Source: Verrucomicrobiales bacterium
Lineage (GTDB): Bacteria; Verrucomicrobiota; Verrucomicrobiia; Limisphaerales; Palsa-1400
NCBI GenBank assembly: GCA_003140095.1
Contig: PLIU01000491.1
Location: 2,789 to 66,788, forward strand
Length of the DNA: 64,000 nt
Reading direction: 5' to 3'
Position numbers and translations under genes: made by a program. The notes beneath the pieces were generated by a model. The model made no database searches and was not told the DNA's origin. It saw only the letters and a program-made list of their open reading frames with translations. Shown here piece by piece: positions 2,183 through 28,137 of the stretch. Every line of letters starts with the position of its first letter. Positions within the stretch are counted from its first letter, which is position 1.

Positions 2183-2451
2183 ATTCACCCGTAAAGCGGC
2201 GCCGTGGCGCGAAATCGGGTGGACGAGATAAAAGTGGGTCTGGCAAGAATTGGGTGGCTCGAGGGGGGCTTTGTCCCGAAGGGGCAGCGGAACCGAGCTA
2301 TAGCCGAGGTTTTTGGCAATGTAGTAGGCAGACTAGAATGAGTGCGCAAAAAACAACACGAATCCGCAAGACCCACTCTTACAGTATCTCATCCACCCCG
2401 CCCCATCCACCGGTTTGACAGTCAGGCCCGCTCTCCGTACGTTGTTCGTCT

Positions 2452-4524
2452 ATGTTCGAGTTGTCCTCTTCTTATCAGCCGGCCGGCGATCAGCCCCAGG
2501 CGATCGTCCGGCTCACCGATGGGGTGTTGGCCGGCGCGCAACACCAAACGCTCGTCGGCGTCACCGGCTCGGGGAAAACTTTCACGGTGGCCAATGTCAT
2601 CCAAAACGTCCATAAACCGACGCTCGTCATCTCCCATAATAAAACGCTCGCGGCCCAGCTTTACGCGGAGTTCAAGAGCTTCTTCCCTCGCAACGCCGTC
2701 GAGTATTTCGTCAGTTACTTCGATTATTACCAGCCGGAGGCCTACATTCCGCGCACCGATACGTTCATCGAAAAAGATTCCAGCATCAACGAGGAGATCG
2801 AACGGCTGCGGCTCTCCACCATGAGCTCGCTCCTGACGCGCCGGGACGTAATTGTCGTCGCCAGCGTCTCCTGCATTTACGGCATCGGCAGCAAGGATAA
2901 TTACGAGGCGCTGGTGCAGCAGGTCTTCGTCGGCCAGTCGGTCACGCGCGACCAGTTGCTGGGGCGCCTGGTGGATTTACAATACTCGCGCAACGATGTC
3001 GCCTTCGAGCGCGGACAATTCCGCGTGCGCGGTGACGTGGTCGAATTGCGGCCCTCCTGGAGCGAGGACGGGCTGCGCATCGAGTTTTTCGGCGACGAGA
3101 TCGAGCGGCTCTCCCGCTTCGAGCCGCTGACGGGGGAGAAAACAGAAAGTCCGCAATCCATCGTCATTTTCCCGGCCAAACAATTCGTCACGCCGGAGCC
3201 GATGATCAAGCGGGCGATCCTGGCCATTCGCGAGGAATTGGGCGAGCGCATCGCCTGGTTTGAGGCGCGCGGCAAATTGATCGAGGCGCAACGGATCAAG
3301 ATGCGCACGGAATACGACCTGGAGATGATGGAGGAAATGGGCTTTTGTTCCGGCATCGAAAATTATTCACGCTACCTGGCCGGCCGCCCGCCGGGTTCCC
3401 GGCCCGGCACGCTGCTGGATTTTTTCCCTAAGGACTATCTGTTGGTGATCGATGAATCGCACGCCTCGGTGCCGCAGATTGGCGGGATGCACGCGGGCGA
3501 CCATTCGCGCAAGTCGGTGTTGGTCGAGCACGGCTTCCGGCTGCCCAGCGCGTTGGACAACCGGCCGCTGGATTTCCTGGAATTTCAATCGATGCAGAAT
3601 CAAACCATTTATCTCAGCGCCACTCCGCAGGAGCGGGAATTGAACTGGTCGCAAGGCCGCATCGTCGAGCAGATCGTCCGCCCCACCGGACTGGTGGACC
3701 CAAAGGTCGTTGTCAAACCCTTGACCGGGCAGATCGACGACCTCCTGGAGGAGATTCGCAAACGTTCCGCCAGCAAGGAGCGCACGCTCGTCACGACGCT
3801 GACCAAGAAATCGGCGGAGGAACTGACCGATTACCTGCGCGAGCTGGGCGTCAACGTGCGCTACCTGCACAGTGAGATCGACGCCATCGAGCGTGTCGAA
3901 GTGTTGCGCGCGTTGCGCAAAGGCGATTTCGACGTGCTGGTGGGCATCAATTTGCTGCGCGAAGGACTGGACCTGCCGGAAGTGTCGCTGGTGGCGATTC
4001 TGGACGCTGACAAGGAAGGCTATCTGCGCAGCGCGACCAGCCTGATTCAAACGGCGGGCCGCGCCGCGCGCCACATCAACGGCGAAGTTATTCTTTACGC
4101 CGACGTGAGGACGCGCAGCATCGAGAAATTTCTGGCCGTATCGGAATATCGCCGCCAGCGGCAACTGGCCTACAATCAGGAGCACCACATCACCCCGCGC
4201 AGCGTGGTCCGGGCGGTGGAGGACAGCCTGGCGGTGTATCAGAACACGCGCGGCCGGGCGGACCTGGTCTTGCGCGAGACCGCCGGAGATTTCGACTTGA
4301 CCGAAACGCTGCGCAGCCTGCAAGAAGAGATGCTCGAAGCCTCCAACAACCTGGAATTCGAGAAAGCCGCCCTCCTGCGCGACCAGATCCGGGAATTGAA
4401 GAGCAGCTTCGGCGAGCGTGGGGAAAAGGACAAAGCTCCGGCCGGCGAAGTCAATTACAAAAAACCGGCCCGGCGCGGAAAACAACGTGCCAAGGCAGGG
4501 CAGGGCAATTCGTACAACAAGTGA
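2452..4524 (+). CDS. uvrB: Excinuclease ABC subunit B
   Basis: 690 aa. Walker A GVTGSGKTF, helicase motifs, C-terminal UVR domain (LEFEKAALLRDQIRELK). Full-length collinear UvrB-like sequence. Confidence 0.97.
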   Translation: MFELSSSYQPAGDQPQAIVRLTDGVLAGAQHQTLVGVTGSGKTFTVANVIQNVHKPTLVISHNKTLAAQLYAEFKSFFPRNAVEYFVSYFDYYQPEAYIPRTDTFIEKDSSINEEIERLRLSTMSSLLTRRDVIVVASVSCIYGIGSKDNYEALVQQVFVGQSVTRDQLLGRLVDLQYSRNDVAFERGQFRVRGDVVELRPSWSEDGLRIEFFGDEIERLSRFEPLTGEKTESPQSIVIFPAKQFVTPEPMIKRAILAIREELGERIAWFEARGKLIEAQRIKMRTEYDLEMMEEMGFCSGIENYSRYLAGRPPGSRPGTLLDFFPKDYLLVIDESHASVPQIGGMHAGDHSRKSVLVEHGFRLPSALDNRPLDFLEFQSMQNQTIYLSATPQERELNWSQGRIVEQIVRPTGLVDPKVVVKPLTGQIDDLLEEIRKRSASKERTLVTTLTKKSAEELTDYLRELGVNVRYLHSEIDAIERVEVLRALRKGDFDVLVGINLLREGLDLPEVSLVAILDADKEGYLRSATSLIQTAGRAARHINGEVILYADVRTRSIEKFLAVSEYRRQRQLAYNQEHHITPRSVVRAVEDSLAVYQNTRGRADLVLRETAGDFDLTETLRSLQEEMLEASNNLEFEKAALLRDQIRELKSSFGERGEKDKAPAGEVNYKKPARRGKQRAKAGQGNSYNK

Positions 4525-4544
4525 GCAGCATAATACTTGTTGTA
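4513..4544 (+). terminator. Hairpin spanning the uvrB stop codon (possible terminator)
   Basis: Perfect 10-bp inverted repeat tacaacaagt / acttgttgta with a 12-nt loop. No U-tract follows, so the terminator role is uncertain. Confidence 0.3.
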
Positions 4545-4632
4545 AAGGCATTTAATCTGCGTTAGTGTGCTGGGCAAGTGACCCAGGCGAGACCGTTTGG
4601 TGGTGCTTGCATGCTTAATTCTTTGAGAACCT

Positions 4633-7035
4633 ATGCCAAGAACCAGCGATCTGCCCTTGCAGACTTCTGCCGTCCATCCTGGCTGCTTTGTCCGATTTCG
4701 CGGCAGTGTGTTCCTTGCGTTGGCGTGGCTGACCTTGAGCGCCGTGCAGGCGCAAACCACCGCTTATGCGTTGGGCACAACCGCGCTCCTGGTGGGATCG
4801 GCTGCGGGAAGTAACAGTGTGGTCCTCGGAGTGACGCCCGCCATAGGCGGCTGGACAGCCACGACGAATGCCACTTGGTTGCGTCTCACGGCAGCGAATC
4901 AAAGCGGCACGGGCAGCACGATTGTTGTATTCAGTTTCGATGCCAATGCGGGCGCGACGCGCAACGGCGCCCTCACCATCGGCGACCAGACGCTCACCGT
5001 CACCCAGGCCGGTTCAACGTATGTCGCGGCTGGACCACTAAGCACATTGGTGTCCGAGGGATTGACTTATCCTTACGGCGTTGCGGTGGACGGCGCGGGC
5101 AATGTTTATATTGCCGACACTGGCAACAACGCCATCAAGCAGTGGACGCCGGCCAACAACACCATGACCATACTGGTTTCCTCGAATTTGTCCAATCCCC
5201 TTGGCGTGGCGGTGGACGGCTCGGGCAATGTCTATATCGCCGACAGTTGGAACGACGAGGTCAAAGAAGTGACGCACGCCTTCGTGGACCCGACCCCGAG
5301 GCTGGAGAAAGGGAACGCCGGCAGCGATTCTTTACCCGTGGTATTGCCTGCCACTCAGAACCTGTTCCCGCCGTTTGCTCCCACCAGCGACCAGCCGTGG
5401 CTGACCATCACCGGCATCACCAACGGCGTGGTCAGTTTTGCCTTTACCGCCACAACTTCCAACCGCGCCGGCAATATCACCGTGCTGGGGCAAACCATTC
5501 CCGTCGTACAAGGCGGCCCTGTTTGTTCCCTCGGCACAACCGCGCTCCTGGAAGGACCGGCTGCCGGAATCGATGGAATCGTGCTGGCGATGATCCCGGT
5601 CACGGGCGCCTGGACAGCCACGGCGAACGCCACCTGGTTGCATCTCAGCGTGGCCAATCAAAGCGGCAACGGTAGCACAAATCTTGTCTTCTCTTACGAC
5701 GCCAATCCGGGTGCAACGCGCTCCGGCACTCTCACCATCGGCGACCAGTCCCTCGCCGTCACCCAGGCCGGTTCAACTTATGTCGCGGTTGGACAGGTGG
5801 CTGCGCTGGCATCGGGATTGCCTGGTCCCGTTGCCGTGGCAGTGGACGGCGTGGGCAATGCTTACATCGCCGACCTCGGCAACTCGATCCAGGAGTGGAC
5901 GGTGGCCAACGGCAATGTGACCACACTGACAGAGCCGGCCCATCCCATTGGCGTGGCGGTGGACGGGGCGGGCAATGTTTACATCGCTGGCCCCGAGCAA
6001 AACGAGATCGAACTGTGGACAGCGGCCAACACCAACCTGACCACACTGGTGACGGGCCTGAACAAGCCGTACGGCGTGGCGGTGGACAACACGGGCAACG
6101 TCTTTATCGCCGACACCGGCAACAATGCGATCAAGAAGTGGACGGCGGCCAACAGCAACCTGACCACAGTGGTTTCCTCGGGCCTGAATTCCCCAGAAGC
6201 CTTGGCGGTGGACGCCGCAGGCAATGTTTACATCGCTGACACTGGCGACAACGCGATCAAGGAGTGGACGGCAGTCAACAACGCCGTTACTACGCTGGTA
6301 TCTTCGGTCTTTTACACACCCATCGGCGTAGCGGTGGACGGTTCGGGCAATGTCTATTTCGCCGATGACGCCTACAACGGGATCAATCAGTGGACGAATA
6401 GCATATATCAGTGGACGATGGCCAACGGTAACGTGACCACAGTAGCGTCCTCTTCCTTGGTATCGTACGATTTCCTAGGCGTGGCGGTGGATGGCGCACG
6501 CAATGTTTACATCGCCGACGACCTCACCGGAGTCATTGAAGAACTGCCGCACGCCTTCGTGGACCCGACGCCCAAGTTGGAAGGTCTGGCCGCCGGCACC
6601 GATGTCTTGCCAGTGGTGTTGCCCGCCACGGAGAATTTGCTGGCTCCGTTTGCTCCCACCAGTGATCAGTCGTGGCTGACGATCACCGGTGTTACTAACG
6701 GCGTGGTGAGTTTCTCCTTTACCACCAATGCTGGACCGGCACGCACGGCCAATATCACCTTGCTTGGCCAAACGGTCGCCATCACGCAGGGAACGATCGG
6801 CACGCCGCCGATGCTGAACGGTGCGCAAATGCTGGGCAACGGGGTCTTGCAGTTTGCCTTCAGCAACACTCCAAACGGTTCCTTTACCGTGCTGTGCACG
6901 ACCAACCTATCGTTGCCGTGGAGCAACTGGACTGTGGTCGGCGCGCCTTCGAATATGGCTTCCGGCCTTTTCCAATTCACCTCGCAGCCGACGACGAATG
7001 ATCCCCAACTCTTCTACGGCGTCCGCTCTCCGTAG
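4633..7035 (+). CDS. Secreted repeat protein: two BACON-like/NHL-blade/BACON-like modules plus a short C-terminal domain
   Basis: 800 aa. Signal peptide (..LALAWLTLSAVQAQT). Ig-like segments (GSTIVVFSFDANAGATRNGALTIGDQTLTVTQAG). 2+6 NHL-type blades (GVAVDGAGNVYIADTGNNAIKQWT). C-terminus ..LFYGVRSP. Confidence 0.75.
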   Translation: MPRTSDLPLQTSAVHPGCFVRFRGSVFLALAWLTLSAVQAQTTAYALGTTALLVGSAAGSNSVVLGVTPAIGGWTATTNATWLRLTAANQSGTGSTIVVFSFDANAGATRNGALTIGDQTLTVTQAGSTYVAAGPLSTLVSEGLTYPYGVAVDGAGNVYIADTGNNAIKQWTPANNTMTILVSSNLSNPLGVAVDGSGNVYIADSWNDEVKEVTHAFVDPTPRLEKGNAGSDSLPVVLPATQNLFPPFAPTSDQPWLTITGITNGVVSFAFTATTSNRAGNITVLGQTIPVVQGGPVCSLGTTALLEGPAAGIDGIVLAMIPVTGAWTATANATWLHLSVANQSGNGSTNLVFSYDANPGATRSGTLTIGDQSLAVTQAGSTYVAVGQVAALASGLPGPVAVAVDGVGNAYIADLGNSIQEWTVANGNVTTLTEPAHPIGVAVDGAGNVYIAGPEQNEIELWTAANTNLTTLVTGLNKPYGVAVDNTGNVFIADTGNNAIKKWTAANSNLTTVVSSGLNSPEALAVDAAGNVYIADTGDNAIKEWTAVNNAVTTLVSSVFYTPIGVAVDGSGNVYFADDAYNGINQWTNSIYQWTMANGNVTTVASSSLVSYDFLGVAVDGARNVYIADDLTGVIEELPHAFVDPTPKLEGLAAGTDVLPVVLPATENLLAPFAPTSDQSWLTITGVTNGVVSFSFTTNAGPARTANITLLGQTVAITQGTIGTPPMLNGAQMLGNGVLQFAFSNTPNGSFTVLCTTNLSLPWSNWTVVGAPSNMASGLFQFTSQPTTNDPQLFYGVRSP

Positions 7036-7042
7036 CTCACTT

Positions 7043-8296
7043 CTACGCAATATCGAGATGGAGTTCCTCATCCACGGGCAGCGTTTTTTCCTCGCGCGTG
7101 GAAAGGTTTTTGAGTTTGAGTTTTGGGCCGCCGGGCGCGGAGGCGTCCAGCTTGACGGTGTAGCGCGCCTTCAATTCCCTCGCGCGTTTGAATTGCTTGT
7201 CCGATTTGGCCGGCGTCAGCGGATATTCCACGGCGTATCCCTTCTCGCGCAAGGACTGCACCAAATTGAGCGACGCTTCCCGCAACGTTTCCTCTTCGAT
7301 CAGGCAGTAGGCATCGATCTGCGAGTCGAACGGCGGCAGCAGGCCGCGCGCCTTGAGCAGCTCGAGCAAAACCACGTCGCCCATGCCGAAACCCAGGGCC
7401 GGCAAATCCACTTTGCCGGCGGAGATGAGGTTGATCAAATTGTCGTAGCGTCCGCCTCCCGCAATGGCGCGGAAATCCCCCTTTTTGTCGAAAGCCTCGA
7501 AGACCACTCCCGTGTAGTAAGCCAGCCCGCGAATAACGTGATAATCAATTCGCACAAAATCACCCAGTCCGCGCGCCCGCAGATTCTTGACAATCGCCTC
7601 CAACTCCGCCGTCGGTTTGCCTTCCGCAATGAACCGGTTGACTTCGTCGAGCGAGAGGCCGGCGTCGGCCAGTTTGGCGCGGCTTTCCTCAGGCGACTCG
7701 CGCTCCAATTTGTCAATGGCCTGGTAAAATGGAGACTCATGCTCCGGGTTGGAGCAGCGCTGGCGGAAGAAATCCTGCCAGGCGTTGCGGCTGCTCAGGC
7801 GGACGGTGAAATCCTCCGCAGTCAAACCAAAAGCACGCAACGAGTCGATCAGCAGCGCCGCCAGTTCCGCGTCGGCAGCCGGGCCGCTTTCCCCGATGAG
7901 GTCGGCGTTGAACTGGAAATGTTCGCGCAGACGGCCCTGTTGCTGTCGCTCGTAGCGGAAAAGCTGGGGGATGGCAAACCACTTGACAGGCTTTTTGTAG
8001 CTGCGCTCGTGCGCGGCGATCATGCGCGCCAGAGTCGGGGTCATCTCGGGGCGGAGCGAGACCGGGCGTCCGCCTTTATCGACAAAATTATAAAGCTGCC
8101 CGACGATCTCCTCGCCGCTCTTGAGGGTGTATAATTCCAGCGGCTCCAGCGGCGGTCCGTCGTATTCGCGAAAGCCGTAACGCCGCGACGTCTCGCGCCA
8201 GCGGTCGAAAATGTGGCGTCGCGCTTCGGCGCTCCAGAGATCGGAGTGCGGGAGCGGTTCGGGATAAAAGTCGCGGAATCCGGGCAATCGTTCCAT
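7043..8296 (-). CDS. hisS: Histidine--tRNA ligase
   Basis: ORF 7043..8776 trimmed to the internal ATG at 8294-8296 (MERLPGFRDFYPE..). HisRS-typical RPEMTPTLARM and AGGGRYDNL. The upstream 160 codons look non-coding. Confidence 0.93.
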   Translation of the reverse strand: MERLPGFRDFYPEPLPHSDLWSAEARRHIFDRWRETSRRYGFREYDGPPLEPLELYTLKSGEEIVGQLYNFVDKGGRPVSLRPEMTPTLARMIAAHERSYKKPVKWFAIPQLFRYERQQQGRLREHFQFNADLIGESGPAADAELAALLIDSLRAFGLTAEDFTVRLSSRNAWQDFFRQRCSNPEHESPFYQAIDKLERESPEESRAKLADAGLSLDEVNRFIAEGKPTAELEAIVKNLRARGLGDFVRIDYHVIRGLAYYTGVVFEAFDKKGDFRAIAGGGRYDNLINLISAGKVDLPALGFGMGDVVLLELLKARGLLPPFDSQIDAYCLIEEETLREASLNLVQSLREKGYAVEYPLTPAKSDKQFKRARELKARYTVKLDASAPGGPKLKLKNLSTREEKTLPVDEELHLDIA

Positions 8297-8446
8297 AATA
8301 GATAGGACACAAAGGCACAACGGGCGGCAAAAGGGAAACAAATTCCGCGTCAACAAAATTGGCGCCACCCATGCCCGCGCCATTCGTGCCGTGGCTCGGG
8401 AAATAAACCTCGTCAGGCCAGGCGGGCAGCTCGTACATTTCTGGCA

Positions 8447-9403
8447 TTGTTGGAAATCCGAAATCTGCAGCTCGAGTTCCGTTCGGACCAGCAGGCTGTC
8501 CGCGCCGTCGATGGCGTCTCCTTTTCCATCGGCCCGGGCGAGACGCTGGGCTTGGTTGGCGAAAGCGGTTCGGGCAAAAGTGTCACCGCCCTGTCCATCG
8601 GACGGCTGCTGCGAACGCCGCCAGCTTTTTATGCTGGTGGAGAAATCCTGCTCAATGGGCGCGATGTCCTGAAGGCGTCGAACCGGGAGTTGCGGGAGTT
8701 GCGGGGCCGGGGAGTGAGTTACATTTTTCAGGAGCCGGGCGTCTCGCTTAATCCGGTCTTCCGCGTCGGCGCCCAAATCAAGGAATCACTCCGCTTGCAT
8801 CGCCCGCAGGCGGCAACGGAGGCGGAGGTGGTGCGTTTGTTGCAAGGAGTGGGCATTGCGGCGCCCGAGATGCGCGTGAAGAGTTATCCGCACGAAATAT
8901 CGGGCGGCATGCAGCAGCGGGTGATGATCGCCATGGCCCTGGCGGCCGAGCCGAAATTGCTCGTGGCCGACGAACCGACCACGGCGCTGGATGTGACGAT
9001 CCAGGCGCAGATTCTGGCGCTGCTCAAAGATGTGCAGCAACGGCTGGGCATGAGCTTGCTGCTCATCACTCATAATTTGGGCATTGTCGGCCAGATGGCC
9101 GACCGCGTTGCGGTCATGTATGCAGGACAAATTGTGGAAACGGCGCCGGCCCAGGAATTATTGCGCCGGCCACTGCACCCCTACACGCGGGCGCTGATGC
9201 AAGCGGCCCCCAGACTCGGCGCGGAGGGCGGCCGATTAGCCAATATTCCCGGCAGCGTGCCGCGCCCGGGAGCGATGCCCTTCGGCTGCCGTTTTCATCC
9301 GCGTTGCGCGATGGCGCGGCCGGAGTGCTCCGTGCAGCAGCCGACATTGGCCGTGGTCGAAGATGGACGGCAAGTGCGCTGTCCTTATTGGAACAGCCCA
9401 TGA
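8447..9403 (+). CDS. Oligopeptide/dipeptide-type ABC transporter ATP-binding protein (OppD/DppD-like)
   Basis: 318 aa, TTG start. Walker A GESGSGKS, signature ISGGMQQRV, Walker [14 protein letters not shown]-terminal Cys-containing Opp/Dpp extension (CRFHPRC). Confidence 0.85.
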
Positions 9404-10398
9404 GCGCGGCTTCACCATTGCTGGAGGTGCGGGATGTGAAGGTTTATTTTCCTGTCAAGCATGGCATTTTCGGCGCGGTGCGGCGATGGGTCAAGGCCGT
9501 CGATGGCGTGAGCTTCGAGCTAGCGGCGGGCGAGACGCTGGGGCTGGTCGGCGAAAGCGGCTGCGGCAAGACCACGCTTGGACGCGCGCTGGCGCGGTTG
9601 GTCCCACTGACCGAAGGGAGCATCCGGCTGGAGGGCGAGGACATGGCGCAATGGACCGGCGCCCAATTGCGCGCGCGGCGGCGGAAATGGCAGATGATTT
9701 TCCAGGACCCCTACAACTCGCTCGATCCGCGCATGACCGTCGGCCACATCATTGGCGAGGCGTTGGAAATTCACCATCTGGCCTCTGACGCGCGGGAGCG
9801 GCAGGCCCGTGTTCGGCAATTGCTCGAATCCGTCGGCCTGGACGGCGCGTACGCGGCGTTTTATCCCCACGAATTCAGCGGCGGCCAACGGCAGCGCATT
9901 GGTATCGCCCGCGCGCTGGCGGTGGACCCGAAGCTGATTATCTGCGACGAACCGGTCAGCGCGCTGGATGTCTCAGTGCAGGCGCAGATCATCAACCTCC
10001 TGCAAGACCTGCAGCAGGAGCGCGGGGTGGCGTATCTTTTTGTGGCGCACGATCTGGCCGTGGTCGAACGGATCAGCCGGCGGGTGATGGTCATGTACCT
10101 TGGCAAAGTGGTGGAATTGGGCCAGGCGGCCGCAGTCGTGCGGACACCCCGGCATCCCTATACCCAGGCCCTGATCTCAGCGGTGCCGGAGATCGACGAC
10201 CAGTCGCAACGGCCGCGCATCGTTTTATCGGGCGAGTTGCCCTCTCCCATCGATCCGCCCTCCGGCTGTCCCTTTCATCCGCGATGTCCTGTCGCCGAAG
10301 CGCGATGCAAACTCGAAGTGCCGCTATTGCGGGAAATAGTCCCAGGCCATTGGGCGGCCTGCCACTTGGCGGGGCCGGCTAGCCGCGCCGAAGCGTAG
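9400..10398 (+). CDS. Oligopeptide/dipeptide-type ABC transporter ATP-binding protein (OppF/DppF-like)
   Basis: Trimmed to ATG 9400 ([17 protein letters not shown]), overlapping the upstream stop (ATGA). Walker [36 protein letters not shown] tail. Confidence 0.85.
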
Positions 10399-10476
10399 CA
10401 CATGAGAGGGTGTACGAAACTGCGCCGAGCTTGTTGAAATGTCAAATTGAGACGGGCACTTGCCTAAAATCTCCTT

Positions 10477-10900
10477 CTAAAACACCGGGTTTTTCAGCAG
10501 AATCGAATGTTTAGATGCGACCCCAATGCCTATTTCTCTGCTCCTGCTGTTCATGAACGATGTCATTTTTCCGTCTTGCAGATTCAAACGGCCAAGGGCA
10601 CCGCCGGAGGTTCCTCCGTAACCGATCCAAAGCGAATCTCCGATCAGGCAAAGGCTCGCAATCCAGTTTTTCGCCAATCCGTCGGCTTCGGTGCGACTGC
10701 TGAACTCGCGTTTGGCCTTGTCGAATTCAAATAATCCACCGCCGTCGCTGCCAAGCCAGATTTTATCTTGCTCCGCGCGCATGCAGGTATAAGTTGGAAA
10801 GCCAGCCCTCCGGGGATGGTGACGACATAATTGGTTTTGAAATTGAAATCAAGACTGTGCAGGCGGCCCGCCGTGAGCAGCAGCCCTTCTTCTGCGCGGG
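10477..10900 (-). pseudogene. Remnant of a beta-propeller (two-component-regulator-propeller type) sensor protein; frameshifted and truncated at both ends
   Basis: The frame of ORF 10477..10782 reads ..AGFPTYTCMRAEQDKIWLGSDGGGLFEFD..DSLWIGYGG..LGRLNL. An adjacent frame upstream reads ..GLLLTAGRLHSLDF..VVTIPGG, implying a frameshift near 10805-10815. No N-terminus or start codon. Confidence 0.4.
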
Positions 10901-10932
10901 CTGACCCTTCGGCTACGCGGTATTTCAATCTT

Positions 10933-12579
10933 ATGTTGCAAAAAAGGTTTTTTACATTGTTCGCCTCCTGCGTGGCCCTTGTGTTCGTGTTGCCCTTGTC
11001 ACCGCAGGCTGGCGCGCCCAACCAGATTCAGGAAGGGGAGATGGCCGGATACCTGCTGGTCCCGAACGAGAAAGTTCAAGAGACGTATAACGCCGGGTTC
11101 TCGATGTATGTAGCAGCTTGGCCTTTAGTGCAGAAATATCCGGGGCATCGTTTTCAAACAGGTTTGTTCGGCACTTGGATGTTCGCGCAGTCTGAGGGTC
11201 CCGCTCCGACCAATTTGTATTCGGATATTGAGGGCGGGCTGGGCTGGTGGACTGACACGCGGTTTCCCACCGAAACGCCGAAGTTCATTATGGGCGGAGT
11301 GGCGCCGAATTTCAGTGAATGGGCAAATGGACCCGGGGCAGGCAAGGAAAGGAACTGGGATGAACCGAAAGGCCAATATGGTGTGGCACAACTCAGCCCC
11401 TGGTTGCTGTGGCCCATGGATGGGTTGAACTTGAAACAAGGCACCTGTGGCGAACTGTTCGGCTACGGTTACCTGCCGCTTCCGCTGAGCACGGCCAAAT
11501 CCGTCACCGCCGGGAAAAATGTACCTACCGGAGATAACTGCTGGACCTTATTTCTGAACACGCGAAACTTCAAAGGTCCGGTTGCCTTCTTCACCCCCTA
11601 TTTCTGGTCCCACGGGACTGTGGAAGATCCTCGCCTGGGTGGAAAGCTTCTGGATAGCCGTCCCTCGCAGCCAAATCGGGCTTTGCAGATGGAAACCCAG
11701 TATATCCCCAGCGTCCAGTCCGTTGACGGGAAAGGGGAGACTTACGCCCGAATTGCCCGAACCTCGTTCCCTCGAGGGCCGAGGGGCGAATCGGTGGTAG
11801 TGCATCGCGTCACCTCCTACAGCAAGAAGGCGCTCTGGGATGCGGTGAAGGCTTGGTTTGAAGGCGGGCCCCAGGTCAGCGGCGCCATCGACCCGCTGGG
11901 GGCTGGTGTGCATAGCTTTAGCGGAGGCGGGGGGGCGACCTGGAGGATCTATACGCCCTCTGTTCCGGAGAAAGAAAGGGCGCCGCTGGCTTGGAATTCT
12001 CTAGCGAGTCCCATCGCAGTTGATTCAAATACCTTCGGCTACCGGTGGAACTCCCAACTGGCTGCGAGAAACGATTCCAAGGATGGCTCGCTGGTGACAC
12101 TGCCCGAATACTATCACCTGGTGACTCATGATCATAAGAAAGCGGAGTGGGTTGCGGTACGACCCGAGGACGTTCCGGCTGAGACAGGCCTGGTCCAGGC
12201 TCGCTTTGATCGGCCGCGCGAGGATCGTCCCGAACCCTACGTCACTCCCGAGGATGCGAAGAGTTGCTGGAAGAAACCTGGCCCGGTGGCAGGGCCTTTC
12301 CAGGCGCACCTGGGGGACGGCAGTGTGGTGACGTACTATTGGTATCGATTCGCCGACCAGCCTGCATTACTCAACGCCGATTTAACAGATCAAGAGCGGG
12401 AGGGCTTGCAGGCGAGGGTGGAAAAACTCCACCGGAACTGGAAAAAAGACCGCGACTACCTGGCGCCGCCCACGATTGGAAAATTGGCGGAGGTTGACCC
12501 GGCGTTGATTGTAACCCCGCCGCCGGGATTGGAGGCAGGGTATGTGCCCATCGCCACACGGCAAGCAGCGGAAGAATAA
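10933..12579 (+). CDS. Secreted protein of unknown function (548 aa)
   Basis: ORF 10831..12579 trimmed to ATG 10933 (MLQKRFFTLFASCVALVFVLPLSPQAGAP, signal peptide). GC-rich third positions throughout. I recognise no family. Confidence 0.6.
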   Translation: MLQKRFFTLFASCVALVFVLPLSPQAGAPNQIQEGEMAGYLLVPNEKVQETYNAGFSMYVAAWPLVQKYPGHRFQTGLFGTWMFAQSEGPAPTNLYSDIEGGLGWWTDTRFPTETPKFIMGGVAPNFSEWANGPGAGKERNWDEPKGQYGVAQLSPWLLWPMDGLNLKQGTCGELFGYGYLPLPLSTAKSVTAGKNVPTGDNCWTLFLNTRNFKGPVAFFTPYFWSHGTVEDPRLGGKLLDSRPSQPNRALQMETQYIPSVQSVDGKGETYARIARTSFPRGPRGESVVVHRVTSYSKKALWDAVKAWFEGGPQVSGAIDPLGAGVHSFSGGGGATWRIYTPSVPEKERAPLAWNSLASPIAVDSNTFGYRWNSQLAARNDSKDGSLVTLPEYYHLVTHDHKKAEWVAVRPEDVPAETGLVQARFDRPREDRPEPYVTPEDAKSCWKKPGPVAGPFQAHLGDGSVVTYYWYRFADQPALLNADLTDQEREGLQARVEKLHRNWKKDRDYLAPPTIGKLAEVDPALIVTPPPGLEAGYVPIATRQAAEE

Positions 12580-12641
12580 GTGAAAGGCGTCGGAACGGTG
12601 TCGCAACGTTGTCAGGACGGCAAAAGGGAATATCGAAGATG

Positions 12642-13244
12642 TTACTTTTTGCCTTTGAACAAGTCCTTCCGCATACGCGCTTTCAGGCGTTTGAGGCATA
12701 GCCTTGCAGCTTCATCGGCGGTGTAGATCCAAAAGCCGGAGATGTCGGAGCCGCCTTTATACTCGTAGTCGGCAGTCCACAATCGAGTTCCGTGGGCGTC
12801 TTTGAGAGTTATTAACATGGTGCTGTTTTGCCAGTTGAGCATGGCGCCGGATGGGGCGTCGCTTGGAGTGGAAGGTGAATAGCCTGTTCCTCCCCAATAT
12901 CCCTCGCCGTCATACCAGCCGGTCGACGTGGCATCGTCCGGACTAATGGTGGTGGGTGAACCGAGAAAGCCGCCTTCGGAACTGCTCTGGAAGATGATTT
13001 CCATTTTTCCGCTCTGAACGAGTTGAGACTCATTTTCGTTGATGTTGAGCAACTGGCCGAATTCCATGACGGCGACTTCATGCACAATTTTGTCCAGGCC
13101 CGGATTGCCGGTGCGAACGAGGATGGAATAGGTCCCTTTGCTTACTTGTTGGGAGGCCAGAGGGGCGATTTGAGTGTTGACCGTGGAGCATCCGCCAAGA
13201 ATATTCACGCACAAACACAAACACAGCAGGACGCAAAATTTCAT
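12642..13244 (-). CDS. Lipoprotein, function unknown
   Basis: Trimmed to ATG 13242-13244 (MKFCVLLCLCLCVNILGGCS, lipobox LGGC). 200 aa. Confidence 0.6.
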   Translation of the reverse strand: MKFCVLLCLCLCVNILGGCSTVNTQIAPLASQQVSKGTYSILVRTGNPGLDKIVHEVAVMEFGQLLNINENESQLVQSGKMEIIFQSSSEGGFLGSPTTISPDDATSTGWYDGEGYWGGTGYSPSTPSDAPSGAMLNWQNSTMLITLKDAHGTRLWTADYEYKGGSDISGFWIYTADEAARLCLKRLKARMRKDLFKGKK

Positions 13245-23267: not shown

Positions 23268-23344
23268 GGGGGTGTAGCTCAATTGGTTAGAGCGCTGCCC
23301 TGTCACGGCAGAGGTTACGGGTTCGAGCCCCGCCACTCCCGCCA
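23268..23344 (+). tRNA. tRNA-Asp (anticodon GUC)
   Basis: Hand-folded cloverleaf. Acceptor GGGGGTG/CACTCCC (one G-U). D arm GCTC-AATTGGTTA-GAGC. Anticodon arm CTGCC-CTGTCAC-GGCAG. T loop TTCGAGC. Discriminator G and encoded CCA. 77 nt. Confidence 0.9.
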
Positions 23345-24246
23345 TCTCCCGCATTCTGCCCTGTTGTGACAGGCAATGCCAAACCGTGACAAACTCCTTT
23401 GGTTACAAGGGTTTGCGCAACTTCCGGCCCGACACTCGTTGTGACAGGCAATGACACGTTTTGACCCGTTGCGCCAAATCCTTGTGAGGCTCCTTGTGAT
23501 GATGATTCTATAAAGGACGGCAACACATCAATCGCCGTTTCCGTTCCCAAAAGATTTTCGTCGGTGTAAGTTTTGTCCGTAAGTTTCCCGTCGCTGTGGC
23601 GCATTATCGCCATAGCCGTGCGGCGTGGCACGCCTGCTTTGGCAAGGTTGGTGCAGAGCGTGTTTCGTAACGCATGGAAATCCGCATAACGTCCAAGGGT
23701 GTCTTGATACGGAATGCCCGCCTTTTTCAAATCCAGCTTGAATCGTTCAATGCGCGGGAATCGCTCAAAGACCAACGCTTCCGGCTGACTTTCGCCCTTG
23801 ATCTCGCGCAAGATGGCCACCAATTCAGGATGCAACGTCATGGGTGCCACTTTGCTGTTTTTGGTTGTGGAAGAACGCACAATGGCGAAGGGTCTTGCCT
23901 CATCCAAGTGCAAGTCCGCCCACTTGAGTTGAGACAGTTCGCCGCGCCGCAAGCCTGTGTGAGGGGCCATCAAATAAGCGGCCTTGTTCTTGCCAGCGAC
24001 GGCCAGCAGACGTTTGATCTCATCAATGGTGAACGCCCGCCGCTCGCGTGTTTGTCGCCCTTCCGTTTTGACTTTTTCGACCGAGAGCATCGGATTTTTT
24101 TCCACCCGCTCGTTTTTAATGAGCCAGTTGAAAAAGCAGCGGGCGGCCTCCAAGTAATCATTGACCGTCTTCGGCGCAAGTTCACATTTGCCGCGCCGCC
24201 ACGTCTGGAATGAATCAGAACTTACCGCCCTGATTGTCGTCCAGTG
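23287..24246 (-). CDS. Tyrosine-type site-specific integrase (short N-terminus, no canonical start)
   Basis: Catalytic-domain signature GLRRGEL, ADFHALRNT, MRHSDGKLTDKTY. Core-binding helix ..PKTVNDYLEAARCFFNWL. The frame is open only from 24246 with no ATG. The C-terminal tail reads through the att-arm repeats into the tRNA. Confidence 0.8.
   Translation of the reverse strand, partial: HWTTIRAVSSDSFQTWRRGKCELAPKTVNDYLEAARCFFNWLIKNERVEKNPMLSVEKVKTEGRQTRERRAFTIDEIKRLLAVAGKNKAAYLMAPHTGLRRGELSQLKWADLHLDEARPFAIVRSSTTKNSKVAPMTLHPELVAILREIKGESQPEALVFERFPRIERFKLDLKKAGIPYQDTLGRYADFHALRNTLCTNLAKAGVPRRTAMAIMRHSDGKLTDKTYTDENLLGTETAIDVLPSFIESSSQGASQGFGATGQNVSLPVTTSVGPEVAQTLVTKGVCHGLALPVTTGQNAGDGGSGGARTRNLCRDRAAL
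23318..23345 (+). repeat. attL core (tRNA-Asp 3' end)
   Basis: 28-nt exact copy of 28110-28137. Confidence 0.75.
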
Positions 24247-25708
24247 TCACTCCCAAATTAACCGGCCAATTCGACATTCCAAGTTCGCCAGATGCTTTTG
24301 GGATTGTCCGAGCCGCCGCGCATCACCGAGGAAGTCTTGCAAATGCTCAAAGGAAATGGTTTGTCACATTGTTTCTTCTGTTCGTTTTGGGCGCTGGCGT
24401 CCAGTTGCACGCTCAAAGTGCTGAACTCGACCGAAAGGTGTTTGAGACCACCAAAGCCAAAGCCGAAACAGGTGATGCAGTCTCAGAATTCAACCTTGGT
24501 GTGGCATATGGTGATGTCGTCAGAGTACCACGAAATTATAAGGAAGCAGCCAGATGGTATCGTAAGGCAGCAGAGCAAGGAATGGCAGCCGCACAATGCA
24601 AACTCGGCTTTTTGTATTCCGACGGCCAAGGCGTTCAGAATGATGATACCGTAGCAGTCGGATGGTTTCGTAAGGCCGCCGAACAGGGAAATGCAGTCGC
24701 ACAATTCTACCTTGGTGAAATGTACGCCGATGCCCACGGTGTGGCACAAGATTATGGGGAAGCAAGCAAATGGCTTCGTAAATCCGCAGAACAAGGAAAC
24801 CCACAAGCTCAAATGGGTCTGGGCGATTGCTACGACCAAGGTCTAGGTGTCGCGAAGGATCAGGCGGAGGCTCTGAAGTGGTATCGCAAAGCCGGAGAAC
24901 AGAATGTGGCCGAAGCCCAATACAATGTGGGCAATTACTACACGCTCGGCTTAGGTGTGGTGAAGGATTATGTGGAGGCAGTAAAGTGGTTTCGCAAAGC
25001 CGCAGCACAGGGAATCGCCGTCGCACAATCCAAACTCGGTACGGCGTATGGCAGCGGCGAGGGTGTTCCTAAGAATTATATTGAAGCATACAAATGGTAT
25101 AGCCTTGCAGCGTCGCAAGGAAATGAATCAGCCAAGACGAATTTATCCATCGCTGAAATGCGCATGACGCCGGAACAAGTTGCCGAGGCACAACGCTTGG
25201 CTCGCGAATTCACGCCGCGCAAGACCTCGGATTTCAACAAGGATACCACTGATTCCCAACCCACGGCCAGCGGCACAGGATTTTTCATCACGGACGATGG
25301 TTATTTGATTTCAAATTATCATGTAGTCAAGAATGCCAAGAAGGTTCGTGTGCTCACGAGCGCCGGTTTGATTTCCGCCAAGGTGGTGCGCATGGATGCG
25401 GCCAATGATTTGGCTTTGTTGAAAGCGGACGGGCGCAGCCGGGCAATTCGGGCGGCGCGCTGGTGGATGAGCATGGCAATGTTGTCGGCGTGGTGTCGGC
25501 CAAACTGAATGCGTCGGCGGCGCTGGCGGCGAGCGGGGCGCTGCCGGAGAATGTGAATTACGCGGTGAAGAGCAGTTATCTATTGAGCTTCCTTGAATCC
25601 GTGCCGGAGGTTTCGGCCAAACTTAAGGCGCCAATCGGCACCGAACGGAAGTTTGATGACGTGGTACAGACGGCACAAGCAGCTGCAGTGCTTGTTATGG
25701 TTTATTGA
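24234..25708 (+). pseudogene. Sel1-repeat (SLR) / trypsin-like serine protease fusion, disrupted by an internal deletion plus frameshift
   Basis: About 7 Sel1 repeats (A.WYRKAAEQG...AQ..LG..Y..G.GV..D). Protease N-lobe GTGFFITDDGYLISNYHVV..DLALLKADG, then the frame is lost near 25428-25436. ORF 25463..25708 resumes at (PGNSGGALV)DEHGNVVGVVSAKL. About 60-70 aa of the protease core are missing. Confidence 0.7.
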
Positions 25709-25792
25709 TTCAAATTTCAACCGTCTGAAGTTTTTTCGTGGCCGTGCGACAGCATTTGCTTTATTGCAAGCCCAAGCGTAAATTAAGCCAAT

Positions 25793-26308
25793 ATGACAAG
25801 GCAAGAAAAACAATTCGTGCAACTTCAGCAACTAGGGACAAAATTGCGAATAGCGCAACAGGAGGTCGAAGAATGTCAGAAAAAACTAGCTGAACGTCAA
25901 CGTAAGGTCGCTGAGATTTTGCAAGAAGTGGCGGACCTTGCCAAATTATGGGGAAAGGATCTGAAAAGGTGGCTTAAAATATTGACATTCTGCGAAAGAG
26001 TTCAGAAGGAAACGGGTCAGCCCCGCATAATCGCATATAATTATTTTCCTGCACGCTCGAAAATCCGCATTGTGTCAATCAAGCGTCAAGAGAGAACTGC
26101 AATACCCACCCCCCTTGGTTTTTTTGCCACGGCTCCCGCGACCCTTTCCCAATTGCCCGTGCCCGTGGTTGCTGGGGGGCGGACTTCCTGCAAGCGTGTC
26201 TCCCTTTTAGTGGCGGTCAGAACGGGCATCGAGAGGCAAACGCAAGTTCTTCGATCACCTCCCGAAGCATCCGATGCTTTTCCTCATCCGGTCTGCGACG
26301 CCTTGTAG
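25793..26308 (+). CDS. Hypothetical coiled-coil protein (uncertain; probably shorter than the ORF)
   Basis: AT-rich ORF. The N-terminal ~60 aa are heptad-like (QQEVEECQKKLAERQRKVAEILQEVADL). The 3' third looks non-coding and overlaps the Rep C-terminal ORF. Confidence 0.3.
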   Translation: MTRQEKQFVQLQQLGTKLRIAQQEVEECQKKLAERQRKVAEILQEVADLAKLWGKDLKRWLKILTFCERVQKETGQPRIIAYNYFPARSKIRIVSIKRQERTAIPTPLGFFATAPATLSQLPVPVVAGGRTSCKRVSLLVAVRTGIERQTQVLRSPPEASDAFPHPVCDAL

Positions 26309-27420
26309 CCCCAAAACTTTTCGACGACGCCAATTCTTGCATCGCCTTTTTCCACTCTGGCGACGGGCGCAGGTGGTCGAGCGTGATTTCCGTCACATGC
26401 CACCAGAATTTCCGTGCCAGGTCGCCGCCACTGTTAATCCAGCGAACGTGAACGTTGAGATTCGCCTCGCCTATCGCTTCCCGTGTGGCCCCGTCCTGCC
26501 AGTCATCTTCCACAAACCACACCGCTTGAAACAGTTTGCCCATTTTCCAAGCCCACTTCGGCCCAAGGATGTCTTTGATGTTTAGCTCGGTGATCTTCGC
26601 GCCCTTGTGGTTCAGGACCGTGACCGCTTGCTTGACCAATTTCCCGCCAGGCGCGAGCGCGAGCCGTCATCCAGCCGAACCGGGACTCGTGCGGCGTTGT
26701 CTTTGCGCGTTCCGCCTCTCGCCTTGGTTCTTTTGACCAGTGGCCGAAATAGCGAACGCACCTTGCCCCCTTGTCTTCCGGCAATCGGCTGTCCCAATCC
26801 TTGTGCAGATATGCGCCCAGGTAACGCCCCAGGGCTTCTCCATTCGTACGCAACGGCTGTAGCTGATGCCGACCGAAACCGTAGAGCTTGGCAGTTCTCA
26901 GCCAATATGCCCATTCCCGGTGTATGGCCTTGTTTGCCGTTAAGTAAACCGGTTTGTAAAGCGGTTTTCCAAGACAGTCTTTTGGCGGGAAGCAGGCAGC
27001 GAAATCAATTTGGCCGTAAATGTTTTCTTTGCAGACCACGACCAGATGGAAATGAATGCCGCCGTTCTTGTGGCGTTCCGTGACATTCACCCCGCACACG
27101 TAACGCTTTGAAATCTCATGTGTCATCAGCGAATGGAAACGCCTTTGAGCTTCAATCCTGTCTCGCAGGTTGCGGAATCTTCCACCCACAACCAAATCGC
27201 CCAAGGTCGGAGTGTGCATGGCGACCCGCTCTCGTCCGAATGTTTCAGACATCCAAAGGATATTCTGCGTTAGTGCTTCCGCCTGCTTCTTGCGTGGCCC
27301 CGGCAATGGTGGCTTCTCATCATCATTTGATGCAGTTGTTACAAATAGACAAGGAAGGCCGGAGGCGGGCGGCGCTTCGCGCCGCTCCGCCCCCAGCCCT
27401 TCCCCGTTGCCCGTTGTCAT
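26217..27420 (-). pseudogene. HUH rolling-circle replication initiator (phiX174 gpA / P2 gpA-like, double-tyrosine type), apparently frameshifted
   Basis: ORF 26503..27420 has GGIHFHLVVV (HUH) and RYLGAYLHK (YxxxY-x-K). The coding-like sequence continues in another frame as ORF 26217..26639 (VKQAVTVLNHKGAKITELNIKDILGPKWAWKMG..). The frame switch lies near 26640-26650. Confidence 0.55.
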
Positions 27421-27461
27421 AATCCCTTGCCCTCATTAGCGGAGCCGATTAACCTTGGAAC

Positions 27462-27662
27462 GTGAAAGCAACATTGCCAGAACCCGAAATCGTAACGCGC
27501 AACGGCAAACCCGTTTCGGTAATCATCCCCATCAAGGAGTACGCAGAACTTTTGGAGCGCGTGGAGGACGCCGATGACGTGGCCTGGCTTAAACGCGCCC
27601 GCCGCAAGCCGCTGCACTACCGTCCGCTGGAAGACTACCTGGCCGAGCGCACGCGCAAGTGA
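27462..27662 (+). CDS. Type II antitoxin, Phd/YefM family
   Basis: 66 aa. ..IVTRNGKPVSVIIPIKEYAELLERVEDADD... The stop overlaps the toxin start. Confidence 0.8.
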   Translation: MKATLPEPEIVTRNGKPVSVIIPIKEYAELLERVEDADDVAWLKRARRKPLHYRPLEDYLAERTRK

Positions 27663-27919
27663 CCATGTATCGCGTCCTGCTTGAACGCGCGGCGGAGAAA
27701 GACCTCTCACGGCTCACCTCGCAGATTCACGACCGGGTCATCGCGGCGATTCGGGCGCTGGCGACAAACCCTCGCCCGCCCGGTTGCCGCAAACTGGCCG
27801 GGAGCAAGAACGACTGGCGCATCCGCGTAGGCGACTACCGCGTGGTTTACGAGATCGCCGATGAGATTCGCGTCGTACGTATCAACCGCGTCCGCCACCG
27901 CCGAGACGTGTACCGTTAA
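27659..27919 (+). CDS. Type II toxin, RelE/ParE family
   Basis: 86 aa (GTG 27659, or ATG 27665). ..KLAGSKNDWRIRVGDYRVVYEIADEIRVVRINRVRHRRDVY. Confidence 0.85.
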   Translation: MTMYRVLLERAAEKDLSRLTSQIHDRVIAAIRALATNPRPPGCRKLAGSKNDWRIRVGDYRVVYEIADEIRVVRINRVRHRRDVYR

Positions 27920-28109
27920 TCGCATAGGTCACTCGCCCTTGTTGCTTATGGCGGCGTTGACAATAGCGAGGATTGGGGCCTTGAGTGGCGGAGGAAGTTT
28001 ATCCCATGCAGTGACTACGCGTGCCAGGTCGCGACCCCATGCGCCGGGAGCTTGTGAGGCTCCTTGTGATGGCAGGCTGCCTAAACCGTTGATGGAGAGG
28101 GTTTCGTCG

Positions 28110-28137
28110 CGGGTTCGAGCCCCGCCACTCCCGCCAT
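28110..28137 (+). repeat. attR core (duplicated tRNA-Asp 3' segment)
   Basis: 28-nt exact copy of 23318-23345. The sequence upstream of it does not fold as a tRNA. Confidence 0.75.

Follow-up and report, generated by a model that had tools for sequence, protein, structure and literature searches.

Integrative elements that occupy tRNA genes are already known, as are small integrated elements that encode a protein resembling a replication initiator. RS1 and TLC-phi of Vibrio are integrated elements of approximately 3 to 5 kb that encode an HUH Rep and lack morphogenesis genes, and SSV1-type archaeal viruses have the attachment site of the circular form (attP) inside int. The replicon phasyl was reportedly described in 1988, by Seufert, Lurz and Messer, as a phage-plasmid hybrid. 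In streptococci, integrative mobilizable elements (IMEs) combine a tyrosine integrase with an initiator-like relaxase (PHA00330, Rep_2, or Rep_trans), for which a role both in maintaining the excised form and in transfer has been proposed (Guedon et al. 2017, PMC5704250), and the repressor gene of the BPs-like mycobacteriophages contains attP (Broussard and Hatfull 2013, PMC3694055). The stretch analyzed here, 64,000 nucleotides of Verrucomicrobiales contig PLIU01000491.1 (the whole of which is called the window), carries at positions 23346-28137 what is very probably a degraded small integrative element that entered the 3' end of a tRNA-Asp(GTC) gene by tyrosine-integrase-mediated recombination between attP and the tRNA gene, with duplication of 28 nt. 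A preliminary description of this element had been made from the letters of the window alone. The features that define the insertion site, including the left and right attachment sites (attL and attR), are as follows.

23268-23344, plus strand: intact tRNA-Asp(GTC) gene, the integration target (ARAGORN; Rfam RF00005, 65 bits)
23318-23345, plus strand: attL core, the left copy of the 28-nt repeat, formed by the tRNA 3' end (exact repeat; the core also bounds the L001 and L081 elements)
28110-28137, plus strand: attR core, the right 28-nt copy, a tRNA 3' fragment (sequence to its right colinear with the downstream flank of tRNA-Asp in L002)

According to ARAGORN and Rfam, this tRNA gene is the only one in the 64-kb window. 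The 28-mer CGGGTTCGAGCCCCGCCACTCCCGCCAT, which consists of the last 27 nt of tRNA-Asp plus one base, is present in the window in exactly two copies; no third copy was found there with up to 3 mismatches allowed, and 100 shuffles gave an expectation of 0 chance matches. The perfect direct repeat in tRNA-Asp(GUC) claimed in the preliminary description was thus confirmed at 28 of 28 nt, with the tRNA itself intact, and the presence of only two copies in the window excludes the objection, anticipated there, that the 28-mer is a common repeat unrelated to integration. The insert delimited in this way (23346-28137) measures 4,792 bp.

Eighty loci around fabH homologues were screened for the tRNA and for genes of the window, and alignment of the flanks to relatives, as the preliminary description had suggested, identified an empty tRNA-Asp site in L002. 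The left flank aligns to this locus up to position 23345 and the right flank from 28110, the two alignments overlapping solely by the 28-nt core, which is the signature expected of an empty site. The gene order in L002 is fabH, tRNA-Asp (4203-4279), and then directly the homologue of the window from 28138 onward, where a small open reading frame (ORF) lies to the right of the repeat. Related elements were found at the same site in two relatives. In the closest genome (L001, with fabH 84% identical), a 5,307-bp insert bounded by a 29-nt repeat of the same core occupies the same tRNA gene and encodes an intact 427-amino-acid (aa) integrase, an excisionase-like helix-turn-helix protein, a 180-aa ORF, a thioredoxin-like cargo protein, an intact 351-aa Rep, and the pair HicB/HicA, which takes the place of the Phd/ParE pair of the window. 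L081 represents the same chromosomal locus in another relative and carries a 4,375-bp element with a 31-nt repeat, the rep gene of which shares 82% DNA identity with that of the window. In addition, the P' arm, the core, and the P arm are contiguous on contig L151, which therefore constitutes a natural attP junction of a related element; the left half of this contig is colinear with the window and L081 on their attL sides and the right half on their attR sides.

It could be argued that no mobile element is present and that ordinary host genes lie between the copies of a chance or local 28-nt duplication, a proposal with which the only mildly atypical composition of the region would agree. However, 0 chance matches were expected, the L002 site is empty, elements encoding both an integrase and a Rep occupy the same tRNA gene in two relatives, and the attP junction occurs naturally. 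The empty site and the attP contig have already refuted the proposal, which retains practically no probability. The region is accordingly treated below as an integrative element, for which the integrase and the arms flanking the core provide the next features.

23287-24444, minus strand: tyrosine integrase pseudogene, the ORF running through attL into the tRNA gene (PF00589, E 8e-18; phrog_1, E 3e-34)
23346-23501, strand unspecified: P' arm, where candidate arm-type sites of the integrase lie (repeats containing TTGTGA, 23363-23381 and 23438-23456; 50-nt block, 23452-23501)
27930-28109, minus strand: detached integrase 3' segment in the P arm (59 open codons from 28109 to 27933, stop codon at 27930-27932; in frame with int only across attP)

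The catalytic domain of the integrase is intact, as the catalytic R, K, HxxR, H, and Y are all present in the translation (GLRRGE, TTKNSK, HALRNT, MRHSD, and KTYTD) and match those of L001. A tblastn comparison with the intact L001 integrase gave an alignment of the pseudogene over residues 44-427 (56% identity); the gene has lost its first ~45 or more codons, and two in-frame stops are present (24247-24249 and 24364-24366). The weak Arm-DNA-bind_3 match seen in intact homologues falls in the missing N terminus, and the cargo gene on the opposite strand, which encodes Sel1 repeats, overlaps the remaining sequence upstream of the integrase. No excisionase gene is left in the window element. The preliminary description placed the start of a tyrosine integrase right next to the tRNA gene; the adjacency holds, but the gene is on the minus strand and it is its 3' end that abuts the tRNA.

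No stop codon precedes the core in the integrase ORF, and the integrated form ends inside the tRNA gene as ...GGSGGARTRNLCRDRAAL, an ending common to the window, L001, L081, and most of the 427-aa homologues in databases. At the other end of the element, the P-arm segment ends in DLARVVTAWDKLPPPLKAPILAIV, the consensus end of such tails being DLxRVVxAWxxLPxPLKAAILAIV. As the int frame crosses attP, it would be only in the excised circle that the integrase carries the 59-residue tail, and as this tail is swapped at integration, free and integrated elements are predicted to encode different integrases. The corresponding tails lie at 16263-16439 in L001 and 7822-7995 in L081, and 13 other loci carry the tail motif just past the core and upstream of rep. 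Across the core, the tail is in frame with int in five elements at three targets (the window, L001, L081, L111, and L117). Differences between the tails are distributed over codon positions 1, 2, and 3 as 411/189/651, a pattern typical of coding sequence, and a 480-aa integrase with the tail contiguous (P0129) is encoded on L151 (1080-2522); together these support the view that the P-arm segment is a genuine part of the integrase. Given the codon-position pattern, conservation of the peptide through DNA-level sites alone (for example, a rep promoter) is unlikely. That recombination takes its direction from the tail is a guess, suggested by the analogous mycobacteriophages that carry attP in the repressor gene. 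Separately, the 5-kb contig L089 carries two copies of the tail motif on opposite strands (963-1034 on the plus strand; the minus-strand copy at 4229 of the reverse complement), suggesting two elements or an inverted rearrangement.

A second repeat, of 21 identical nt inside a 50-nt block that is 76% identical overall, has one copy 136 nt past the attL core and the other 39 nt short of the attR core, with the P-arm copy of the block at 28022-28071. One copy of an arm repeat is also present on each side of the core in L001, L081, and L111, at similar distances in the first two of these; the repeat sequences of L001 and L111 differ, and L081 has the TTGTGAGGCTCCTTGTGA motif of the window. These paired repeats, which belong to elements of the gene order termed type A below, are best read as arm-type sites of the integrase, and an analogous pair occurs in elements of the other order, type B. 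A reading of the second repeat (23452-23501 and 28022-28071) as the mark of a second element in tandem was rejected, as the repeat and the core follow each other in opposite orders at the two ends; the reading is also contradicted by the natural attP contig L151, which has one repeat copy per arm.

The other enzyme of the element is a replication initiator, and its gene appears to contain the origin.

26217-27420, minus strand: rolling-circle Rep pseudogene encoding a two-tyrosine HUH initiator of the phasyl-Arp type (1-nt insertion at 26639; degenerate motif I)
27326-27403, minus strand: candidate replication origin in the 5' end of rep, consisting of a GC-rich hairpin (27353-27403) and, directly next to it, the invariant block CTTGTCTATTTGTAACAACTGCAT (~27326-27353)

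Comparison with L081 revealed a 1-nt insertion at 26639 that splits Rep into two overlapping frames. When the frame was corrected, the resulting 401-aa protein aligned over 99 to 100% of its length with intact homologues of ~410-450 aa, at identities of up to 77 to 79%. Motif I reads AMHTPTLGD in the window against a consensus of GFLTLTLGD, deviating at 4 nearly invariant positions. Residues H123 and H125 (HFH), Y200, Y204, and K207 are invariant in 20 to 21 homologues, the window reading HFHLVVV and YLGAYLHK, and HFH followed by Y200/Y204..K207 is, on the protein sequence, the pattern of a two-tyrosine HUH initiator. A weak Phage_GPA match was found for this protein in Pfam, and its AlphaFold2 model was confident for residues 45-230. 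Homologues of Rep numbered 265 at E < 0.001, most of them from peat, bog, and lake metagenomes; the few that bear an organism name are from Verrucomicrobiota, except for one labelled Proteobacteria. A metagenome scan with Rep yielded 64 loci. Contig L096, an independent metagenome contig that ends short of the integrase region, is 99.57% identical to window positions 24377-27417 (3,041 nt, 0 gaps) and has the same Rep insertion and the same deletion in the peptidase of the cargo gene; this gap-free identity indicates that the Rep and protease lesions are not assembly errors. The frameshifted HUH Rep noted in the preliminary description was upheld by the insertion and by the HUH and YxxxY..K motifs. 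Lesions had been attributed to three genes, and those in Rep and the protease are real, with the correction that the integrase itself is also a pseudogene.

The window and L001 agree at every position of a 48-nt stretch within the 5' end of rep, even though the two Reps are only 38 to 39% identical. The hairpin of the window folds as DNA at -29 kcal/mol (z -5.6), and a hairpin is present in 43 of 46 distinct family sequences (z -3.4 to -7.8), its stem sequence varying between members but always abutting the invariant CTTCCTTGTCTATTTGTAACAACTGCAT (the block is also written CTTCCTTGTCTATTTGTAACAACT). With a covariance model constructed on 14 members, the motif was detected in 44 loci. Since a plain MAFFT alignment of the hairpin was not structure-consistent, the covariance-model alignment was used instead. 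In this alignment 92.1% of cells were paired, compared with 74.6% in shuffles, none of 500 of which reached the observed value; 20 of the 22 pairs showed changes on both sides; the covariation score was 0.41 versus 0.11; and in a control in which the partner was slid by 1 to 3 columns, pairing dropped to 48 to 57%. The hairpin and the invariant block are probably the replication origin, and by sequence the hairpin would be the binding site of Rep and the block would hold the nick site. Several considerations weigh against this assignment: the alignment was fitted to the covariance model, which favours pairing in the figures above; G.T outnumber A.C mismatches in the hairpin by 44 to 24, a difference too weak to assign the strand or the molecule; and the hairpin could be an RNA terminator or regulator. 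Rfam returned no match to the rep hairpin, only the tRNA being found (gathering threshold for the whole window; E 0.1 for 22.5-29 kb).

The invariant block is translated, and every family member has an in-frame ATG or GTG upstream of it. The possibility that Rep actually starts at Leu39 (before PGPRKK), which would place the hairpin upstream of the gene, was rejected because of these upstream start codons in all members and because the codon varies synonymously (CTC, CTG, CTT, and TTG).

Using tblastn against plasmids, it was found that Rep matches 26 plasmid records of 0.7-2.1 kb at 32 to 35% identity over residues ~25-295, with E values down to 4e-41, and a pairwise comparison of Rep with Arp gave an E value of 2e-49. 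Where these plasmids are annotated, the RefSeq product name is "phasyl DNA replicon protein arp"; their hosts are Aeromonas, Escherichia, Klebsiella, Salmonella, Citrobacter, Enterobacter, and Pasteurella, and all were typed as non-mobilizable. As arp is the sole gene in the one plasmid with full annotation (the others have few or no other annotated genes), the Arp protein and its origin appear close to a complete replicon. The equivalent of the invariant block in arp is GAGCTTCCTTGTCTATTTAGAAACAACTC in L148 and CCCTTCCTTGTCTATATAGTAACAACTC in L149.

A tblastn search of a phage collection with Rep gave no match. Homologues were found in L147 (an IMG/VR contig, 131-4929), where a Rep with 29% identity is accompanied by Zot, a ribbon-helix-helix protein, and an HTH_17 protein, and in the metagenome contig L124 (2470-10233; also L123), the Rep of which is 57% identical to that of L081. 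In L124, Rep is followed by genes for a major-coat-like protein, a pIII-like protein of 814 aa with a Gly-rich linker, a pVI-like protein, and a Zot-like P-loop ATPase, and to judge from these genes L124 is a filamentous phage. L124/L123 and L147 are filamentous-phage genomes of Verrucomicrobiota-like origin that use the Rep and the origin block of the family. The resemblance to single-stranded DNA (ssDNA) phages or satellites that the preliminary description had remarked on thereby acquires a concrete basis, namely, homology of Rep to the filamentous phages L124 and L147 and to phasyl Arp.

These phages bear on the question of whether the element is the remnant of a filamentous-phage satellite, in which an inovirus-type Rep and origin would make ssDNA circles to be packaged by a helper inovirus. 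Such a satellite is compatible with a degraded integrative element and would add to it a route of transfer. It is suggested by the Rep homologues with the same origin block in the inovirus genomes L124/L123 and L147, by the existence of small elements without morphogenesis genes, and by a resemblance to RS1 and TLC-phi of Vibrio in all but the element's own tRNA-targeting integrase. No inovirus morphogenesis ATPase (pI/Zot), coat, or pIII-like gene was found by Pfam or PHROGs in the ORFs of the window element. When the phage genes of L147 and L124 were compared by tblastn with the family loci, including this part of the window, only Rep was shared, and beyond Rep the only phage-gene match was that of Zot, which links the two phage contigs to each other. 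No packaging signal was found, and the phasyl plasmids demonstrate that the same Rep and origin also serve a plain plasmid replicon. The satellite origin is thus possible, although we consider it unlikely.

The combination of enzymes also raises the possibility that the element is the remnant of an IME, with Rep doubling as relaxase. Its small size, its integrase and excisionase module, and the HUH initiator as sole DNA-processing enzyme would fit, Rep and the hairpin could fill the role of relaxase and oriT, and there is a precedent in the streptococcal IMEs with Rep_trans, Rep_2, and PHA00330-type proteins (PMC5704250). However, neither a coupling protein (TcpA/FtsK-like) nor any other transfer gene was found among the ORFs scanned, and the closest characterized relatives of Rep are plasmid and phage replication proteins, not relaxases. 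To our knowledge, no helper for such an IME has been described in Verrucomicrobiota. An IME origin therefore appears distinctly improbable.

The window element belongs to a large family of tiny integrating replicons, apparently not described before, with two gene orders and two integrase types. In type A, which includes the window, L001, L081, L087, L105, L111, L117, and L125, the order is Rep, small ORFs, excisionase, integrase, and then the tRNA gene; in type B, which includes L082, L091, L097-L100, and L108, the tRNA gene is followed by a different integrase, an 85-aa ORF, an HTH_17 protein, Rep, and a 214-aa ORF. Family members, which come mostly from Verrucomicrobiota, sit beside tRNA genes of seven or more kinds (Asp, Met, Ser, Arg, Gly, Leu, and Thr). 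In the seven loci for which both ends were found, tRNA-derived direct repeats of 28 to 63 nt enclose spans of 3,781 to 5,307 bp. Cargo is located downstream of Rep on the opposite strand. The accessory ORFs o227, o180, o85, and o214 had no match in PHROGs, NCBIfam, or Pfam, and o139 had weak zinc-ribbon matches in Pfam and one weak PHROG match. Decay is frequent in the family: in L081 the integrase is frameshifted and an insertion sequence (DDE transposase, 12253-13239) lies between tRNA-Asp and fabH; in L085 an IS21-like fragment (4026-4838) takes the place of the integrase; and in L117 a deletion has removed the C terminus of Rep and fused its N terminus to the excisionase (7908-9098).

Two of the type B elements are also of note for their orientation. 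L082 and L098 have repeats of the 5' part of the target tRNA gene, of 41 nt (5921-5961 and 10325-10365) and 63 nt (5488-5550 and 10447-10509), respectively, and lie upstream of the tRNA gene, the reverse of the usual target orientation. Beside the member next to tRNA-Arg, L100 carries a CRISPR-like array (10095-11368) with 18 copies of the 36-nt CCGCCTCAAGATTTCTGGAATCGCGCCGTGGTCGCC at a spacing of ~71 nt.

Between the integrase and the P arm, the window element carries the following additional features.

24234-25708, plus strand: cargo pseudogene, its secreted product combining six Sel1 repeats with a trypsin-like peptidase (Sel1, E 4.5e-58; Trypsin_2)
25793-26100, plus strand: unassigned, AT-richer ORF, the "coiled-coil" of the preliminary description (G+C content at third codon positions [GC3] 0.42)
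27462-27662, plus strand: Phd/RelB-like antitoxin ORF of 66 aa (PF02604, 28.9 bits against a cut-off of 29.8, profile positions 24-56 of 74; phrog_2268)
27659-27919, plus strand: intact ParE/RelE toxin ORF (PF05016, 53.1 bits against a cut-off of 23; phrog_1213, E 4.5e-21)

The peptidase has an internal deletion with a change of frame near 25433-25436, and the middle of the domain is gone: in a single frame Trypsin_2 matches at profile positions 1-71 only, and in a two-frame composite it matches at positions 1-59 and then in the region of the Ser motif. This deletion, its change of frame, and the same arrangement in L096 bear out the inactivated Sel1/protease gene of the preliminary description, and Sel1 cargo occupies the same position in L083. 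The ORF listed there as a possible coiled coil is present (25793-26308), with no family match found in Pfam, PHROGs, or NCBIfam; beyond ~26100 this longer form is merely antisense to the 3' end of rep, and among the compared loci the ORF at 25793-26100 was found solely in the window and L096. The Phd/RelE pair likewise exists, the toxin scoring well above its Pfam cut-off and the antitoxin just under. The two ORFs overlap by 4 nt (27659-27662), the antitoxin starts 41 nt from the divergent rep start, and it may be N-terminally shortened.

GC3 is 0.48 in the Sel1 gene and 0.42 in the unassigned ORF, compared with 0.81 in fabH to the left and ~0.63 in the genes to the right, and it is host-like in Rep (0.60 to 0.67) and in the toxin-antitoxin pair (0.72 to 0.77). 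The AT-richer third positions reported at 24.3-26.1 kb therefore hold for the Sel1 gene and the unassigned ORF relative to fabH, but the signal is modest relative to the right flank. Elsewhere in the window, a tandem repeat unrelated to the element (5833-6280; period of 126 nt, 3.7 copies, 72% matches) lies in a coding region that presumably specifies a repeat-domain protein.

From these features, the following cycle is proposed for an intact member of the family. The element would excise by means of the integrase and excisionase, and the two-tyrosine HUH Rep would nick at the invariant, CTTG-containing block beside the hairpin, allowing the circle to replicate by the rolling-circle mode, presumably as in the homologous one-gene phasyl plasmids. 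The circle could then reintegrate, so that the cycle would alternate between an integrated state and a rolling-circle plasmid state, with toxin-antitoxin pairs and secreted proteins carried as cargo and with a replication module of inovirus/phasyl type. In the circle the int frame would run across attP into the 59-residue tail, which integration would exchange for ~10 tRNA-antisense residues, and the integrase forms differing between the two states may bias the direction of recombination.

The copy in the window is, by its sequence, dead, and by itself should be able neither to excise, to replicate, nor to reintegrate, because its integrase lacks the N-terminal (arm-binding) part and has two stops, its excisionase is gone, and its Rep is frameshifted with a degenerate motif I. 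These lesions agree with the earlier judgment that the element is probably immobile now. Its cores are still perfect and its origin sequence is intact, as is the ParE/RelE toxin gene, and the short ORF for the Phd-like antitoxin remains. As attL, attR, and most arm sites are intact, the copy might instead be non-autonomous, with an intact sibling excising it in trans. Both 28-nt cores are perfect, the 21-nt arm repeat is identical on both arms, and related elements are abundant in these bacteria. However, no second integrase or Rep of either type is encoded in the 64-kb window, and the excised circle could not replicate itself because Rep is frameshifted, although its origin could be served in trans. 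Mobilization in trans is accordingly very unlikely, and we retain the view that the copy is inactive.

Several observations count against a degraded integrating replicon of this kind. The nicking, replication, and recombination activities would follow from sequence likeness. The composition of the element is only mildly unlike that of the host. The PF23343 (REP_ORF2-G2P) score is below the Pfam cut-off of 27.8 bits for both the window ORF (23.1) and P0001 (25.8), a cut-off that is passed by the Rep of L147 (33.2) and by phasyl Arp (45.9). In a fold search, matches of Rep to the PDB were weak, Helitron being the best at E 0.02, followed by the Rep domains of geminiviruses, circoviruses, and nanoviruses, all HUH enzymes. 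In the integrated state the tail of L117 may possess its own start codon, and the role proposed for the integrase tail is speculation. Finally, no excised circle or junction read was seen for the window's own copy, and none was expected.

With these points in mind, we tentatively propose, at somewhat less than even confidence, that the window preserves a fossil of widespread, undescribed "integrative phasyl-like" replicons of Verrucomicrobiota: inovirus-derived elements whose own tRNA-targeting integrase is built across attP, with a tail present only in the circle. This arrangement would amount to a self-contained recombinase switch, possibly setting direction, and the elements may spread as filamentous-phage satellites. 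In a limited literature search, no description was found of the family, of the sharing of Rep and origin across phyla, or of an integrase tail beyond attP. Taken alone, the copy in the window is ordinary; the family from which it comes is moderately interesting. For annotation, the segment is a dead mobile element, and its intact toxin-antitoxin pair and broken cargo should be labelled as parts of it. More broadly, a single Rep and origin module recurs across phyla in filamentous phages, in phasyl (1.3 kb in E. coli, among the smallest plasmids known), and in integrating elements of 4 to 5 kb, a concrete case of module exchange among ssDNA viruses, plasmids, and integrative elements. The candidate origin is sharply defined, as a variable hairpin and an invariant block of ~25 nt with a CTTG motif. 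Searches for inoviruses that rely on the morphogenesis ATPase would miss elements of this family, and an int frame that crosses attP would be a simple way to make different recombinases in the free and integrated states.

Of the known systems, the phasyl plasmids share with the family the HUH and YxxxY..K motifs and a block, CTTCCTTGTCTAT(T/A)T..AACAACT, which occupies the same position as in the family, within the gene's 5' end. They differ in being free, in their size of 0.7-2.1 kb, and in having no integrase; moreover, their GC hairpin is weak and was missed by the covariance model, and, relative to phasyl Arp, the verrucomicrobial Rep is longer by a C-terminal region of ~110 residues. The gene A protein of phiX174 is likewise a two-tyrosine HUH initiator with its origin inside its own coding sequence. 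The annotated origin in gene A, CAACTTG/ATATTAATAACAC (nick 4306, at the slash), has the same order of CTTG, an AT-rich stretch, and TAACA(C/A), with a spacing that is off by 1 to 2 nt from that of the family block; unlike the family elements, however, phiX174 is a capsid-forming lytic virus without an integrase.

Compared with integrated systems, the Vibrio satellites RS1 and TLC-phi use the host XerCD at dif, whereas the family elements have their own tyrosine integrase and excisionase and target tRNA genes. The streptococcal IMEs are likewise small integrated elements that pair a tyrosine integrase with a protein resembling a rolling-circle initiator, but they belong to a different phylum and have a different Rep family, and no coupling protein was seen in the ORFs scanned here. 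The switches of the BPs-like phages and SSV1-type viruses are similar to the arrangement proposed here in that recombination at attP alters the 3' end of a gene, such that the excised and integrated forms encode different proteins. In the family, by comparison with these attP-in-gene switches, it is the integrase itself that would be affected, its C-terminal tail being swapped and its catalytic domain left unsplit.

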